Shown here piece by piece: positions 43,668 through 51,781 of a stretch of 64,000 bases of DNA. The stretch lies in the NCBI RefSeq assembly GCF_003334335.1, contig NZ_QOWQ01000030.1. One strand, written 5' to 3'. How positions within the stretch are numbered: the stretch's first letter is position 1; every line of letters begins with the position of its first letter. The translations under genes and the position numbers were made by a program. The stretch is from Escherichia coli. GTDB lineage: Bacteria > Pseudomonadota > Gammaproteobacteria > Enterobacterales > Enterobacteriaceae. Under the pieces are notes generated by a model. The model was not told the origin of the DNA and searched no databases. It worked only from the letters and a program-made list of their open reading frames with translations.

Positions 43668-44978
43668 ATGGGTCAGGTTTTACCGCTGGTTACCCGCCAG
43701 GGCGATCGTATCGCCATTGTTAGCGGTTTACGTACGCCTTTTGCCCGTCAGGCGACGGCTTTTCATGGCATTCCCGCGGTTGATTTAGGGAAGATGGTGG
43801 TAGGCGAACTGCTGGCACGCAGCGAGATCCCCGCCGAAGTGATTGAACAACTGGTCTTTGGTCAGGTCGTACAAATGCCTGAAGCCCCCAACATTGCGCG
43901 TGAAATTGTTCTCGGTACGGGAATGAATGTACATACCGATGCTTACAGCGTCAGCCGCGCTTGCGCTACCAGTTTCCAGGCAGTTGCAAACGTCGCAGAA
44001 AGCCTGATGGCGGGAACTATTCGAGCGGGGATTGCCGGTGGGGCAGATTCCTCTTCGGTATTGCCAATTGGCGTCAGTAAAAAACTGGCGCGCGTGCTGG
44101 TTGATGTCAACAAAGCTCGTACCATGAGCCAGCGACTGAAACTCTTCTCTCGCCTGCGTTTGCGCGACTTAATGCCCGTACCACCTGCGGTAGCAGAATA
44201 TTCTACCGGCTTGCGGATGGGCGACACCGCAGAGCAAATGGCGAAAACCTACGGCATCACCCGAGAACAGCAAGATGCATTAGCGCACCGTTCGCATCAG
44301 CGTGCCGCTCAGGCATGGTCAGACGGAAAACTCAAAGAAGAGGTGATGACTGCCTTTATCCCTCCTTATAAACAACCGCTTGTCGAAGACAACAATATTC
44401 GCGGTAATTCCTCGCTTGCCGATTACGCAAAGCTGCGCCCGGCGTTTGATCGCAAACACGGAACGGTAACGGCGGCAAACAGTACGCCGCTGACCGATGG
44501 CGCGGCAGCGGTGATCCTGATGACTGAATCCCGGGCGAAAGAATTAGGGCTGGTGCCGCTGGGGTATCTGCGCAGCTACGCATTTACTGCGATTGATGTC
44601 TGGCAGGACATGTTGCTCGGTCCAGCCTGGTCAACACCGCTGGCGCTGGAGCGTGCCGGTTTGACGATGAGCGATCTGACATTGATCGATATGCACGAAG
44701 CCTTTGCAGCTCAGACGCTGGCGAATATTCAGTTGCTGGGTAGTGAACGTTTTGCTCGTGAAGCACTGGGGCGTGCACATGCCACTGGCGAAGTGGACGA
44801 TAGCAAATTTAACGTGCTTGGCGGTTCGATTGCTTACGGGCATCCCTTCGCGGCGACCGGCGCGCGGATGATTACCCAGACATTGCATGAACTTCGCCGT
44901 CGCGGCGGTGGATTTGGTTTAGTTACCGCCTGTGCTGCCGGTGGGCTTGGCGCGGCAATGGTTCTGGAGGCGGAATAA
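43668..44978 (+). CDS. fadI: 3-ketoacyl-CoA thiolase FadI (anaerobic beta-oxidation)
   Basis: 436-aa ORF; thiolase fold with an active-site cysteine region ([12 protein letters not shown]). Confidence 0.92.
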
Positions 44979-47122
44979 TGGAAATGACATCAGCGTTTAC
45001 CCTTAATGTTCGTCTGGACAACATTGCCGTTATCACCATCGACGTACCGGGTGAGAAAATGAATACCCTGAAGGCGGAGTTTGCCTCGCAGGTGCGCGCC
45101 ATTATTAAGCAACTCCGTGAAAACAAAGAGTTGCGAGGCGTGGTGTTTGTCTCCGCTAAACCGGACAACTTCATTGCTGGCGCAGACATCAACATGATCG
45201 GCAACTGCAAAACGGCGCAAGAAGCGGAAGCTCTGGCGCGGCAGGGCCAACAGTTGATGGCGGAGATTCATGCTTTGCCCATTCAGGTTATCGCGGCTAT
45301 TCATGGCGCTTGCCTGGGTGGTGGGCTGGAGTTGGCGCTGGCGTGCCACGGTCGCGTTTGTACTGACGATCCTAAAACGGTGCTCGGTTTGCCTGAAGTA
45401 CAACTTGGATTGTTACCCGGTTCAGGCGGCACCCAGCGTTTACCGCGTCTGATAGGCGTCAGCACAGCATTAGAGATGATCCTCACCGGAAAACAACTTC
45501 GGGCGAAACAGGCATTAAAGCTGGGGCTGGTGGATGACGTTGTTCCGCACTCCATTCTGCTGGAAGCCGCTGTTGAGCTGGCAAAGAAGGAGCGCCCATC
45601 TTCCCGCCCTCTACCTGTACGCGAGCGTATTCTGGCGGGGCCGTTAGGTCGTGCGCTGCTGTTCAAAATGGTCGGCAAGAAAACAGAACACAAAACTCAA
45701 GGCAATTATCCGGCGACAGAACGCATCCTGGAGGTTGTTGAAACGGGATTAGCGCAGGGCACCAGCAGCGGTTATGACGCCGAAGCTCGGGCGTTTGGCG
45801 AACTGGCGATGACGCCACAATCGCAGGCGCTGCGTAGTATCTTTTTTGCCAGTACGGACGTGAAGAAAGATCCCGGCAGTGATGCGCCGCCTGCGCCATT
45901 AAACAGCGTGGGGATTTTAGGTGGTGGCTTGATGGGCGGCGGTATTGCTTATGTCACTGCTTGTAAAGCGGGGATTCCGGTCAGAATTAAAGATATCAAC
46001 CCGCAGGGCATAAATCATGCGCTGAAGTACAGTTGGGATCAGCTGGAGGGCAAAGTTCGCCGTCGTCATCTCAAAGCCAGCGAACGTGACAAACAGCTGG
46101 CATTAATCTCCGGAACGACGGACTATCGCGGCTTTGCCCATCGCGATCTGATTATTGAAGCGGTGTTTGAAAATCTCGAATTGAAACAACAGATGGTGGC
46201 GGAAGTTGAGCAAAATTGCGCCGCTCATACCATCTTTGCTTCGAATACGTCATCTTTACCGATTGGTGATATCGCCGCTCACGCCACGCGACCTGAGCAA
46301 GTTATCGGCCTGCATTTCTTCAGTCCGGTGGAAAAAATGCCGCTGGTGGAGATTATTCCTCATGCGGGGACATCGGCGCAAACCATCGCTACCACAGTAA
46401 AACTGGCGAAAAAACAGGGTAAAACGCCAATTGTCGTGCGTGACAAAGCCGGTTTTTACGTCAATCGCATCTTAGCGCCTTACATTAATGAAGCTATCCG
46501 CATGTTGACCCAAGGTGAACGGGTAGAGCACATTGATGCCGCGCTAGTGAAATTTGGTTTTCCGGTAGGCCCAATCCAACTTTTGGATGAGGTAGGAATC
46601 GACACCGGGACTAAAATTATTCCTGTACTGGAAGCCGCTTATGGAGAACGTTTTAGCGCGCCTGCAAATGTTGTTTCTTCAATTTTGAACGACGATCGCA
46701 AAGGCAGAAAAAATGGCCGGGGTTTCTATCTTTATGGTCAGAAAGGGCGTAAAAGCAAAAAACAGGTCGATCCCGCCATTTACCCGCTGATTGGCACACA
46801 AGGGCAGGGGCGAATCTCCGCACCGCAGGTTGCTGAACGGTGTGTGATGTTGATGCTGAATGAAGCAGTACGTTGTGTTGATGAGCAGGTTATCCGTAGC
46901 GTGCGTGACGGGGATATTGGCGCGGTATTTGGCATTGGTTTTCCGCCATTTCTCGGTGGACCGTTCCGCTATATCGATTCTCTCGGCGCGGGCGAAGTGG
47001 TTGCAATAATGCAACGACTTGCCACGCAGTATGGTTCCCGTTTTACCCCTTGCGAGCGTTTGGTCGAGATGGGCGCGCGTGGGGAAAGTTTTTGGAAAAC
47101 AACTGCAACTGACCTGCAATAA
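44978..47122 (+). CDS. fadJ: Fatty-acid oxidation complex alpha subunit FadJ (enoyl-CoA hydratase / 3-hydroxyacyl-CoA dehydrogenase)
   Basis: 714-aa ORF with an N-terminal crotonase domain and C-terminal NAD-binding 3-HCDH domains; start overlaps the fadI stop. Confidence 0.92.
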
Positions 47123-47324
47123 GAAGGTCAAAGCTATATGAATCCGCGCTGAATGGCGGAGTGTTGGTCAAAATGTAAACGCATATTGACTATACTTACG
47201 CCATTGAGGTAAAAAACAGCGTTTCATTCGGTGAATGGATAAGGCACAATGCCGGCCACCGTTTTCTTTCTCTGGTTTCAGATGAAAGAAAACGGGCGAA
47301 TCTGGTTAACAAAAGCGGTGCAAT

Positions 47325-47810
47325 ATGCAAGTTTTTATCATGCGTCACGGCGACGCAGCCCTCGATGCCGCCAGTGATTCCGTTCGTCCTCTGACCACTA
47401 ATGGTTGTGACGAATCTCGCCTGATGGCGAACTGGCTGAAAGGTCAAAAAGTGGAAATCGAACGCGTTCTGGTGAGCCCGTTCCTGCGAGCCGAGCAAAC
47501 ACTGGAAGAAGTAGGGGATTGTCTGAACCTGCCTTCCAGTGCAGAAGTTCTGCCGGAGTTAACGCCCTGCGGCGATGTTGGTCTGGTCAGTGCCTATTTG
47601 CAGGCGTTGACCAATGAAGGTGTTGCTTCGGTACTGGTGATCTCTCACTTACCGTTAGTCGGGTATCTGGTTGCCGAGTTATGTCCGGGCGAAACGCCGC
47701 CTATGTTTACCACCTCGGCCATTGCCAGCGTAACGCTTGATGAAAGCGGAAACGGCACATTCAACTGGCAGATGAGCCCGTGTAATCTGAAGATGGCAAA
47801 AGCTATCTGA
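47325..47810 (+). CDS. sixA: Phosphohistidine phosphatase SixA
   Basis: 161-aa ORF; N-terminus MQVFIMRHGDA carries the RHG motif of the histidine phosphatase superfamily. Confidence 0.9.
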   Translation: MQVFIMRHGDAALDAASDSVRPLTTNGCDESRLMANWLKGQKVEIERVLVSPFLRAEQTLEEVGDCLNLPSSAEVLPELTPCGDVGLVSAYLQALTNEGVASVLVISHLPLVGYLVAELCPGETPPMFTTSAIASVTLDESGNGTFNWQMSPCNLKMAKAI

Positions 47811-47822
47811 TGAGTTCCAAAT

Positions 47823-47854
47823 TATGCCCAATGAGGTAGATTCATTGGGCATAA
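47823..47854 (+). terminator. Hairpin immediately downstream of sixA (putative terminator, no clear T run)
   Basis: ttatgcccaatga-ggtagat-tcattgggcataa: perfect 13-bp stem. Confidence 0.45.
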
Positions 47855-48490
47855 TTGCTCATCAGGCAGCGGATATCTGTCAACCTCACTACTATCGAAG
47901 ACTCTCCCCATCTATAAATAAAACACCTTTAACTTTCATTCGGAAAGTATTCTTCTGCGCGTATCTTGATTTTGCCCAAAGTTACATGTTGAAATGAATA
48001 ATGTCTGTTTGACACTCATTATCATTTATTAATACAGATAATGGAGAAAATAGAGTTGAATAATCAGGCAGGACGTAATTGAAACTTGATTAAATTCTGG
48101 CTATAGTGTTTATATATTATATCGACAAAAGCGGGTTAATGCCAATCGCATTATATGTTCATTGTTTGTTTTTTAAGCTATTGGCATTCATTGTTGATAT
48201 GCTTCCTGTTTTTTCTAAATATATATTTCGTGTTTTTTTAGAAGATCCTTAAGATAATCTTTCCCCTATCAATATATTAATTAAATCTACATTTACTCAT
48301 TAGTAAAATTAAATTGAATCAGGGGAGTGAAAACATCACTATTCGACCCCACACCAACGAATACATTTTTTACGACCTGTTTTTTTGGATCGCATGCCGT
48401 ATTCAATGGCTGGGTATAAACATTGGCTATTGACTGAATCAATGTATTGCAATGTTTATATTTTAATTATTTATAGTTTAAGGACAAATA

Positions 48491-49054
48491 ATGAGTAAGT
48501 TTGTTAAAACAGCTATTGCTGCGGCAATGGTGATGGGCGCGTTCACCTCTACGGCAACAATCGCTGCGGGTAACAACGGTACTGCACGTTTTTACGGCAC
48601 CATTGAAGACTCAGTGTGTTCTATCGTTCCGGACGATCACAAACTGGAAGTTGATATGGGTGATATCGGTGCCGAAAAACTGAAAAATAACGGCACCACC
48701 ACGCCGAAAAATTTCCAGATTCGCCTGCAAGATTGCGTATTTGATACTCAGGAAACAATGACCACTACCTTTACTGGTACCGTTTCTTCTGCAAATAGCG
48801 GCAATTATTACACCATTTTCAATACCGATACCGGTGCGGCATTTAACAATGTTAGCCTGGCGATCGGTGACTCTCTGGGTACCTCTTACAAAAGCGGCAT
48901 GGGTATTGACCAGAAAATCGTGAAAGATACTGCCACTAATAAAGGCAAAGCGAAGCAGACTCTGAACTTTAAAGCCTGGCTGGTCGGCGCAGCTGATGCG
49001 CCAGATCTGGGTAATTTCGAAGCAAATACCACCTTCCAGATTACTTACCTGTAA
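48491..49054 (+). CDS. yfcV: Fimbrial major subunit YfcV (chaperone-usher pilin)
   Basis: 187-aa ORF with a signal peptide and a C-terminal beta-strand motif (TTFQITYL) typical of fimbrial subunits; first gene after a 630-bp AT-rich region. Confidence 0.85.
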   Translation: MSKFVKTAIAAAMVMGAFTSTATIAAGNNGTARFYGTIEDSVCSIVPDDHKLEVDMGDIGAEKLKNNGTTTPKNFQIRLQDCVFDTQETMTTTFTGTVSSANSGNYYTIFNTDTGAAFNNVSLAIGDSLGTSYKSGMGIDQKIVKDTATNKGKAKQTLNFKAWLVGAADAPDLGNFEANTTFQITYL

Positions 49055-49059
49055 GGCAT

Positions 49060-49091
49060 ACCCCCATAGCGACACTGCTATGGGGTATTTA
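49060..49091 (+). terminator. Stem-loop after the major pilin gene (attenuator-like)
   Basis: acccccatagc-gacact-gctatggggt hairpin followed by attt; such hairpins commonly follow fimbrial major subunit genes. Confidence 0.5.
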
Positions 49092-49135
49092 AATGGATTT
49101 TGACCGAACAAGAATAAAAACGGATAAAAACGTGT

Positions 49136-51781
49136 ATGCCTGACCATTCTCTTTTTCGATTACGGATTCTTCCGTGGTGCATTGCGCTGGCAATGTCAGG
49201 GAGTTATAGCAGTGTCTGGGCTGAAGACGACATTCAGTTTGATTCCCGTTTTCTGGAATTAAAAGGCGACACAAAAATTGATCTGAAGCGTTTTTCCAGC
49301 CAGGGGTATGTTGAGCCCGGAAAATACAATTTACAGGTTCAACTAAATAAACAGCCATTGGCGGAAGAGTACGATATTTACTGGTATGCTGGTGAAGATG
49401 ACGTTAGCAAAAGCTATGCTTGTCTGACACCGGAACTGGTGGCGCAGTTTGGTTTAAAAGAAGACGTGGCGAAAAATCTGCAATGGAGCCACGATGGTAA
49501 ATGCCTGAAGCCCGGTCAACTGGAAGGCGTGGAAATTAAGGCTGATTTAAGCCAGTCCGCATTAGTCATTTCACTACCGCAGGCTTACCTCGAATATACC
49601 TGGCCCGACTGGGATCCACCTTCTCGTTGGGATGATGGCATCTCCGGGATCATTGCGGACTACAGCATCACTGCGCAAACACGACACGAAGAAAATGGCG
49701 GCGATGACAGTAACGAGATCAGCGGCAACGGGACGGTCGGGGTTAACCTGGGGCCATGGCGTATGCGCGCTGACTGGCAGACCAACTATCAACATACGCG
49801 CAGTAATGATGATGACGATGAATTTGGCGGCGATGACACACAAAAAAAATGGGAGTGGAGTCGCTATTATGCCTGGCGGGCGTTACCGTCATTAAAAGCC
49901 AAACTGGCGCTGGGCGAAGATTACCTCAATTCCGATATTTTCGACGGTTTTAATTATGTTGGTGGCAGTGTCAGCACTGACGATCAAATGTTGCCTCCCA
50001 ATCTGCGCGGCTACGCGCCAGACATTTCCGGCGTGGCACACACCACAGCAAAAGTGACCGTCAGCCAGATGGGGCGTGTGATTTACGAAACGCAGGTTCC
50101 GGCTGGACCGTTTCGTATTCAGGATCTTGGTGATTCCGTCTCCGGTACGTTGCATATTCGCATTGAAGAACAGAACGGCCAGGTGCAGGAATATGACATC
50201 AGCACCGCCTCGATGCCATACCTCACTCGCCTAGGCCAGGTTCGCTATAAGATCATGATGGGACGTCCGCAAGAGTGGGGCCACCATGTCGAGGGGGGAT
50301 TTTTCTCTGGTGCTGAAGCCTCCTGGGGCATCGCTAACGGCTGGTCGTTATATGGCGGTGCGCTGGGTGATGAAAACTATCAGTCTGCGGCGCTGGGCGT
50401 CGGTCGCGATTTGTCTACCTTCGGCGCGGTCGCGTTTGATGTTACTCATTCGCATACCAAACTGGATAAAGACACCGCTTATGGCAAAGGTTCGCTGGAC
50501 GGTAACTCCTTCCGTGTGAGTTATTCCAAAGACTTTGACCAGCTCAACAGCCGCGTCACTTTCGCTGGATATCGCTTCTCGGAAGAGAACTTTATGACCA
50601 TGAGCGAGTATCTGGATGCCAGTGACAGCGAAATGGTCCGTACGGGCAACGACAAAGAGATGTACACCGCCACTTATAACCAGAACTTCCGCGATGCGGG
50701 TGTTTCGGTTTATCTCAACTATACCCGCCATACCTACTGGGATCGTGAGGAGCAGACAAACTACAACATCATGCTCTCCCACTATTTCAATATGGGCAGC
50801 ATTCGTAATATGAGCGTTTCCCTGACTGGCTACCGCTACGAGTATGACAACCGGGCGGATAAGGGCATGTACATTTCGCTCAGTATGCCGTGGGGCGACA
50901 ACAGTACCGTTAGCTATAACGGCAACTATGGCAGTGGGACGGACAGCAGCCAGGTCGGTTATTTTAGCCGTGTCGATGACGCGACTCACTATCAGTTGAA
51001 CATCGGCACCAGTGACAAACACACCAGCGTTGATGGCTACTACAGCCATGATGGTTCGCTGGCGCAGGTTGACCTCAGTGCGAACTACCATGAAGGGCAA
51101 TACACCTCTGCGGGCTTGTCGTTACAGGGCGGCGCAACGCTTACTACCCACGGCGGCGCACTTCACCGTACCCAGAATATGGGCGGGACACGCCTGCTGA
51201 TTGATGCCGATGGCGTTGCCGATGTTCCGGTGGAAGGTAACGGGGCTGCTGTTTATACCAATATGTTTGGTAAAGCCGTCGTTTCTGACGTTAACAATTA
51301 TTATCGCAATCAGGCGTATATCGACCTCAACAAATTGCCGGAAAACGCCGAAGCAACCCAGTCGGTGGTGCAAGCCACGCTAACTGAAGGAGCCATTGGC
51401 TACCGCAAATTTGCCGTCATCAGTGGTCAAAAAGCGATGGCGGTGCTGCGTTTACAAGATGGCAGCCATCCACCGTTTGGCGCAGAAGTAAAAAATGATA
51501 ACGAGCAGACAGTGGGCCTTGTCGATGATGACGGTAGTGTCTATCTGGCTGGGGTGAAACCTGGCGAACATATGAGTGTGTTCTGGAGTGGTGTTGCGCA
51601 TTGCGATATCAACCTGCCGGACCCGCTGCCTGCCGATCTGTTTAACGGCTTGTTACTGCCATGCCAGCATAAAGGCAACGTCGCGCCGGTTGTTCCTGAT
51701 GACATAAAGCCTGTCATTCAGGAGCAGACGCAACAGGTGACACCCACCGATCCCCCTGTTTCTGTTTCAGCTAACCAATAA
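49136..51781 (+). CDS. yfcU: Fimbrial outer-membrane usher (YfcU-type), intact full-length frame
   Basis: 881-aa uninterrupted ORF with a signal peptide; length and composition typical of FimD/PapC ushers, including a C-terminal Cys pair region. Confidence 0.85.
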   Translation: MPDHSLFRLRILPWCIALAMSGSYSSVWAEDDIQFDSRFLELKGDTKIDLKRFSSQGYVEPGKYNLQVQLNKQPLAEEYDIYWYAGEDDVSKSYACLTPELVAQFGLKEDVAKNLQWSHDGKCLKPGQLEGVEIKADLSQSALVISLPQAYLEYTWPDWDPPSRWDDGISGIIADYSITAQTRHEENGGDDSNEISGNGTVGVNLGPWRMRADWQTNYQHTRSNDDDDEFGGDDTQKKWEWSRYYAWRALPSLKAKLALGEDYLNSDIFDGFNYVGGSVSTDDQMLPPNLRGYAPDISGVAHTTAKVTVSQMGRVIYETQVPAGPFRIQDLGDSVSGTLHIRIEEQNGQVQEYDISTASMPYLTRLGQVRYKIMMGRPQEWGHHVEGGFFSGAEASWGIANGWSLYGGALGDENYQSAALGVGRDLSTFGAVAFDVTHSHTKLDKDTAYGKGSLDGNSFRVSYSKDFDQLNSRVTFAGYRFSEENFMTMSEYLDASDSEMVRTGNDKEMYTATYNQNFRDAGVSVYLNYTRHTYWDREEQTNYNIMLSHYFNMGSIRNMSVSLTGYRYEYDNRADKGMYISLSMPWGDNSTVSYNGNYGSGTDSSQVGYFSRVDDATHYQLNIGTSDKHTSVDGYYSHDGSLAQVDLSANYHEGQYTSAGLSLQGGATLTTHGGALHRTQNMGGTRLLIDADGVADVPVEGNGAAVYTNMFGKAVVSDVNNYYRNQAYIDLNKLPENAEATQSVVQATLTEGAIGYRKFAVISGQKAMAVLRLQDGSHPPFGAEVKNDNEQTVGLVDDDGSVYLAGVKPGEHMSVFWSGVAHCDINLPDPLPADLFNGLLLPCQHKGNVAPVVPDDIKPVIQEQTQQVTPTDPPVSVSANQ

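Follow-up and report, generated by a model that had tools for sequence, protein, structure and literature searches.

The AT-rich spacer ahead of the yfc fimbrial operon of Escherichia coli: an H-NS-bound promoter-island locus with conserved blocks in front of yfcV

What occupies the long stretch of DNA that separates sixA from the fimbrial gene yfcV in Escherichia coli: a control region, a concealed gene, or a DNA switch? We addressed this question in a stretch of 64,000 nucleotides (contig NZ_QOWQ01000030.1 of assembly GCF_003334335.1), which was analysed at its full length and is called the window here. The gene order on its plus strand is fadJ (44978-47122), sixA (47325-47810), yfcV (48491-49054; the major fimbrial subunit gene and the first gene of its operon), and the usher gene yfcU (49136-51781; 881 amino acids). 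By the annotated boundaries, the sixA-yfcV spacer runs from 47811 to 48490 on the same strand (680 bp, GC 0.32). A preliminary description, made from the letters alone, had placed the region at 47855-48490. The gap it reported is real, but a start at 47855 only skips the hairpin behind sixA; the spacer in fact begins directly after the stop codon of sixA, which ends at 47810, and runs up to yfcV, which starts at 48491.

The spacer is the longest gap without an ORF of at least 60 codons in the 64-kb window (680 bp, the runner-up being 365 bp), and no other 680-bp stretch has a lower GC content (0.31-0.32 here; the median over the window is 0.50 and the first percentile 0.35). It thus ranks first on both counts, which bears out the earlier statement that the region is very AT-rich and free of ORFs of 60 codons or more; the AT-rich runs singled out in that statement are found as TTTTTTAAGC from 48169 and as AAATATATATTTCGTGTTTTTTT at 48218-48239. 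Two other parts of the window fall below a GC of 0.36 over 680 bp. One (30390-31432) spans the spacer between an evgA-like and an emrK-like ORF, and the other (39811-41436) consists of ORF 40067-41125 with its flanks and probably corresponds to the promoter island published for yfdF/mlaA.

In sequence, the spacer does not differ from that of K-12 MG1655 (100% identity), in which no annotated feature lies inside it; its equivalent in U00096.3 is at about 2455647-2456326. Over the 6.7 kb that we compared with MG1655 there are only two base differences, at 50232 and 50872, both within yfcU; this gene is intact in the window, and the MG1655 copy has an internal stop at codon 579. The window thus belongs to a strain that resembles K-12 but is not MG1655. 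Elsewhere in the window, a tRNA-Arg gene with anticodon CCT (argW-type) is located at 37754-37828, within a segment (36717-38836) that has ordinary ORFs directly on both sides of it, and no integrase or prophage lies next to it in the window. Going by the gene order of K-12, the CPS-53/KpLE1 prophage is missing here, which again speaks against a K-12 strain.

By its identity to MG1655, the spacer is a listed promoter-island locus. In Table 1 of Panyukov and Ozoline (2013; PMC3661553), yfcV(-)/sixA(-) appears among the 78 promoter islands of K-12 under the designation 2453647_489, and the same table marks it as H-NS-bound in both the Kahramanoglou and the Oshima datasets. The published U00096.2 coordinates of this island map to the window only approximately, at about 48000-48500. 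The same list includes the DNA upstream of most other cryptic fimbrial operons, with islands at yadN, sfmA, ybgD, elfA, yehD, yraH, ecpR, and fimB/E/A. In the tables of Shimada and colleagues (PMC3946193), genomic SELEX gives a peak of RpoD holoenzyme in the spacer, the spacer is marked as containing an H-NS site, and the sequence TTGAAA-17-TATAGT is assigned to yfcV as a "constitutive promoter" (their Table 2). Genomic SELEX also gives a peak of RpoS holoenzyme within the spacer (PMC5493296), and a CsiR ChIP peak is found near it (PMC5217608). On the expression side, a published description (PMC3559732) calls the yfc fimbrial operon core-associated and, although functional, cryptic, and H-NS repression is reported in that source for many cryptic fimbrial operons of this type. 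The yfcV mRNA rises on over-production of BolA in K-12 and on over-production of TosR in CFT073. A 3'-end/5'-end dataset, whose entries lie upstream of sixA only, gives no transcription start site for the spacer.

We conclude that the spacer (47811-48490) serves as the control region for the yfc fimbrial operon. The preliminary description had called it an H-NS-silenced fimbrial control region, and this is supported by the published H-NS binding, which we know second-hand through the tables in PMC3661553 and PMC3946193, together with the cryptic behavior of yfc (PMC3559732). This main reading is correct but not new, because the locus is already present in published genome-wide lists: The feature and its principal interpretation are in the literature, and the region is an ordinary one. 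In our own sequence, the H-NS motif TCGATAAATT, allowing up to two mismatches, occurs three times in the spacer against about one occurrence expected from the window average. We set this excess aside and did not use it, because AT-richness alone would give such counts.

Promoter prediction was among the checks that the preliminary description had proposed. Against a uniform background, promoter-like hexamer pairs occur at 16 per kb in the spacer and at an average of 3.3 per kb in the window, approximately a fivefold difference that places the spacer among the top three of the window (the density is a crude count based on a PWM, whereas promoter islands are defined by their PlatProm score). When compared with shuffles of the same composition, however, there is no excess, four sites being found where 4.2 are expected. 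The density of promoter-like sites is therefore probably a consequence of AT-richness, high relative to the window but not relative to composition. The best sigma70-like match on the yfcV strand (48079-48107, plus strand, TTGAAA-17-TATAGT) lies 384 bp 5' of the ATG; it was picked up by our scan and is the very site assigned to yfcV by SELEX. Close to it, on the opposite strand and directed toward sixA, is TTGGCA-18-TATAAT (48116-48145, minus strand), with 11 of 12 matches. As a predicted site, it would belong to the overlapping two-strand signals that are typical of a promoter island.

The frequency of promoter-like sites, being no higher than composition predicts, would also fit a reading in which the spacer has no regulatory content of its own: It would be a compositional relic of horizontally acquired and recombining fimbrial DNA, to which H-NS binds only because of its AT-richness and in which any conserved blocks are functionless. 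We consider this unlikely, for reasons that come from the comparison of alleles. A query with the sixA-yfcV region found matches in all 5426 complete E. coli genomes, and the 16 loci examined with a complete spacer all have a spacer length of 514-687 bp and a GC content of 0.26-0.33, followed in every case by a fimbrial subunit gene. Absence of conservation across strains had been named beforehand as a finding that would speak against a control region; the locus is instead matched in 5426 of 5426 genomes, and in the loci examined the spacer keeps its length and low GC content. Such maintenance in all alleles examined is not what is expected of a relic. A scan of species representatives with YfcV yielded seven loci, all of them from Escherichia or close relatives, two of which were too short to include the spacer.

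Within these limits of length and composition, the spacer varies greatly. There are at least eight allele classes, which are only 55%-70% identical to one another; across the same alleles, sixA is 93%-100% identical and the YfcV protein 66%-98% identical. The contrast between spacer and sixA is a point in favor of a relic of recombining DNA. Similarity breaks off exactly at the sixA stop codon (loci L002, L004, L005, L007, L011-L017, L066, and L076), which points to repeated replacement, or to a very old polymorphism, of the yfc control region. The yfc genes are unusually polymorphic, and their trees disagree with MLST (PMC4850163), which indicates recombination and is again in keeping with a relic. 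One 2.2-kb contig (L015, JAIJJM010000567.1), labeled as part of a Collinsella metagenome-assembled genome, carries a B2-type sixA-yfcV region of E. coli, with a spacer 95% identical to that of E2348/69, and is almost certainly a binning contaminant. Several natural strains have an IS1 in the spacer, and one has an IS5 (hits H11, H31, and H71; locus L003, positions 1735-2501); that such insertions are tolerated is a further argument for the relic reading. In strain XJW9B277, the IS1 lies approximately 450 bp upstream of yfcV, equivalent to 48035-48044 of the window, with a target duplication of 9-10 bp. Insertions of this kind can activate other H-NS-silenced operons.

Just behind sixA, the spacer contains the hairpin that the preliminary description had noticed. 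It is a real structure (47820-47856, plus strand, 3' of the sixA stop), with 15 perfect pairs between its arms (47820-47834 and 47842-47856) and a 7-nt loop; its folding energy is -25 kcal/mol, and its folding z-score against shuffles is -5.0. The K-12 allele of the hairpin has no clear T-tail and was not called by a terminator scan. In other alleles, however, a T-run follows, and the stem is kept by paired changes (CCCAAT/ATTGGG, CCCGAT/ATCGGG, and GGCCCG/CGGGCC). Since the hairpin is maintained through paired substitutions and has a T-run after it, it is probably the sixA terminator.

Farther downstream, a few short blocks survive in a spacer that is otherwise nearly saturated with changes: ATATTA (48114-48119), two blocks that we call A and B, GTTTATA (48454-48460), and the translation-initiation region TTTAAGGACAAATAATG (48477-48493, plus strand). 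Block A, CAC(A/G)CCA(A/G)(A/C)GAATA, is found in the window as CACACCAAAGAATA at 48350-48363; block B, T(A/G)TTC(A/G)ATGG, is found as TATTCAATGG at 48400-48409. The two form the left and right arms of an imperfect inverted repeat of the pattern ACCAnnGAATA/TATTCnnTGGT. Their conservation was determined in alignments of 13-15 spacer alleles. The initiation region, with the Shine-Dalgarno sequence AAGGA at 48480-48484 and the yfcV ATG at 48491, is identical in 15 of 15 alleles. Spacing is kept as well as sequence: GTTTATA stands 37-38 nt from the ATG in all alleles, and block B is separated from GTTTATA by 52-56 nt in nine alleles and by 62-64 nt in four. These two spacing groups lie approximately 10 bp apart, close to one turn of the helix, but the distances within the first group already vary by 4 bp. 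Both the fixed distance to the ATG and the grouping of the distances from block B to the -10-like element argue against a functionless relic, as does the observation that the two blocks and the -10-like element hold their places although the intervening DNA is saturated with changes.

The -10-like element in question is TATATT (48457-48462, plus strand), which overlaps GTTTATA. When promoter scores are compared position by position, it shares its position in eight of 10 allele representatives, and it is the only promoter-like element that is co-positioned in most alleles. It has a poor -35 partner and lies 22 nt before the ribosome-binding region. Judging from its conservation, TATATT is most likely the working core promoter, and we infer that yfcV would start near 48469, with a leader of approximately 22 nt. 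This disagrees with the published assignment to 48079-48107. If the published site were used instead, yfcV would be read with a leader of approximately 375 nt, and the conserved blocks would be RNA elements acting in stability, attenuation, or translation. Such a reading can draw on the quality of the distal site, to which no other sigma70 match in the spacer is equal, and on its assignment by genomic SELEX. It can also draw on pairing within the predicted leader: As RNA, blocks A and B can form 10 pairs, which are kept in nine to 11 of 11 alleles, and just 5' of the ribosome-binding site there is a perfect inverted repeat of 11 bp (48415-48425 with 48450-48460) with T-rich sequence after it. 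The same features lose weight on comparison. The distal site has no positional conservation outside the A/B1-type alleles, for example in E and B2; the pairing between A and B shows no compensatory change and amounts to only about -3 kcal/mol; and the hairpin 5' of the ribosome-binding site folds no better than shuffles (z = -1.2) and is missing in the B2-type alleles. Transcription of yfcV from the distal promoter is for these reasons quite unlikely in our judgment.

If the start lies near 48469 as predicted, the center of block A is located about 112 bp 5' of it and block B at about -64. In every Escherichia allele the A/B pair stays in place upstream of the -10-like element, as it does in Pseudocitrobacter, whose locus (L014), found through YfcV, carries blocks A and B independently. 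Blocks A and B may be sites for a regulator and are a candidate operator. The more specific proposal that the near-invariant inverted pair CACACCAAAGAATA/TATTCAATGG is the operator of a dedicated regulator of the Yfc fimbriae is one that we put forward tentatively, as possible rather than probable. The allele set represents only about four to six deep lineages, and two of its members (L066 and L076) came from a search with this same A/B pattern. With so few deep lineages and such short blocks, the conservation is therefore suggestive and not proof. A metagenome scan with the same pattern returned mostly chance matches; 28 of the loci retrieved proved to be genuine yfc loci, which added two allele classes.

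The blocks were also set against the consensus sites of CRP, FNR, RcsAB, MarA, IHF, FadR, PhoP, NarL, and sigma54, and none fitted. Between blocks A and B lies CGACCTGTT (48373-48381), which corresponds to the right half-site in the consensus of the FadR operator, a few hundred base pairs from fadJ. Its left half is mismatched and it is not conserved across alleles, and the resemblance is probably due to chance.

If the operator reading holds, the regulator would act as the dedicated signal by which the cryptic yfc operon escapes H-NS silencing and is turned on; yfcV, the major subunit gene of this operon, serves as a marker for uropathogenic strains. With the spacer so near to saturation between E. 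coli lineages, the surviving blocks mark the sites to mutate in looking for the Yfc inducing signal. They are a small, testable lead, and although the detail is modest it is new.

Could the spacer instead conceal an unannotated small protein gene or a small regulatory RNA, as had been suggested from the sequence? Small ORFs exist in it mechanically, for example, at 48155-48241 (28 amino acids, very hydrophobic), at 48106-48252 (48 amino acids), and at 47936-48025 on the minus strand (29 amino acids), and that strand also has a strong promoter-like site. The twelve mechanical ORFs of 20-57 codons were traced through the A, B1, E, and B2 alleles, and none of the 12 is conserved. The 28- and 48-amino-acid ORFs are cut by stop codons in B1 alleles of 93% identity, and those of 30, 37, 39, and 49 amino acids are frameshifted or interrupted by stops in B1 alleles. 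The three that are intact in both A and B1 are located where these alleles hardly differ, are not preceded by a Shine-Dalgarno sequence, and do not occur in any other allele. The search below 60 codons that the preliminary description had recommended thus leaves no candidate: Of 12 ORFs none is conserved, and the survivors are without a ribosome-binding site.

For an RNA, the result is much the same. Rfam gives no match in 47000-49300 at E-values up to 1, the terminator scan of the spacer finds no terminator-like site, and a consensus fold over 11 alleles (RNAalifold) reaches only -3.3 kcal/mol with zero compensatory pairs. The local folds of two segments close to yfcV, 48340-48420 and 48405-48495, are no better than shuffles (z = -1.0 and -1.2, respectively). 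From the sequence comparisons, a hidden small gene of either kind is very unlikely, although a transcript specific to some strain may exist.

Many fimbrial operons are phase-variable, and the preliminary description had accordingly called the region possibly phase-variable. A phase switch for Yfc might work by inversion as in fimS, by Dam and Lrp as in pap, or by slippage in a T-tract, and the spacer has features that could be read in each way. It contains perfect short inverted repeats (47912-47921 with 48467-48476, and 48293-48302 with 48489-48498), two GATC sites, and two T7 tracts. Perfect inverted 10-mers are in fact more frequent than in Markov shuffles (10 against 0.8), with six of the 10 located in the sixA hairpin and two in a single 11-bp repeat. 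Comparison of genomes nevertheless speaks against all three mechanisms. Using as a query the junction expected after a flip between the repeats at 47912-47921 and 48467-48476, and requiring at least 80% coverage, we found the inverted junction in none of 3525 genomes, and in whole-spacer searches nearly all genomes give one place and one strand. There is no adjoining gene for a recombinase or a papI/papB-type regulator, because no gene is annotated between sixA and yfcV; the neighbors are fadJ, sixA, yfcV, and yfcU in all annotated genomes examined. The GATC sites, at 48244 and 48388, are 144 bp apart, compared with approximately 102 bp in the pap type. Only one of the two is common to other alleles, the site at 48244 being restricted to the K-12 allele, and the JA0266, PU1, and 2CC alleles have neither. 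The T7 tract between blocks A and B (48380-48386, plus strand), which of the two is the one covered by our slippage count, is fixed: T7 in 1102 genomes, T8 in at most two, and T6 in at most three. The phase-switch explanation is therefore largely refuted at the population level, and we regard such a switch as highly improbable.

Taken together, these results make it probable that the spacer is the H-NS-coated control region of the cryptic yfc chaperone-usher operon, with no gene, small RNA, or DNA switch in it. Binding of H-NS and of the sigma70 and sigmaS holoenzymes, as well as low expression, has been shown by others in the tables and reports cited above. In the mechanism that we propose, the AT-rich spacer would bind RNA polymerase at many overlapping promoter-like sites, and H-NS would coat it and keep the operon silent in laboratory growth. 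The distal, allele-specific part would serve mainly as a platform for H-NS nucleation and spreading and as a source of decoy promoters on both strands, among which we would count TTGGCA-18-TATAAT on the minus strand (48116-48145). Near the gene, TATATT with its poor -35 partner would start the yfcV mRNA near 48469, giving the 22-nt leader with the Shine-Dalgarno sequence AAGGA. A protein bound at block B (about -64) and block A (about -112) might then help RNA polymerase or displace H-NS. As a whole, the region is a textbook-style case of xenogeneic silencing ahead of a cryptic fimbrial operon, and apart from the conserved blocks the analysis adds little beyond confirmation.

Comparison with known systems places the spacer in the same way. 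Like fimS of the type 1 fimbriae, it is AT-rich, a few hundred base pairs long, furnished with short inverted repeats, and listed as a promoter island; unlike fimS, it has no adjacent recombinase gene, and in 3525 genomes it was never found inverted between the 47912 and 48467 repeats. With operons of the pap type, yfc shares the order of major subunit and then usher, in which it resembles the pap-like (pi-family) operons; it differs from them in lacking papI/papB and a conserved GATC pair at approximately 102 bp. The correspondence is closer with the H-NS-silenced cryptic chaperone-usher operons of K-12 (Korea et al. 2010, as cited in PMC3559732), which likewise have long, AT-rich upstream regions. 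Like them, yfc is silent in the laboratory and functional when forced on, and it occupies a core position in all E. coli. With the K-12 promoter islands, as tabulated in PMC3661553, there is no difference in kind: The spacer is the same locus as island 2453647_489, an AT-rich, H-NS-bound, and quiet region with promoter-like sites on both strands, lying beside a fimbrial operon.
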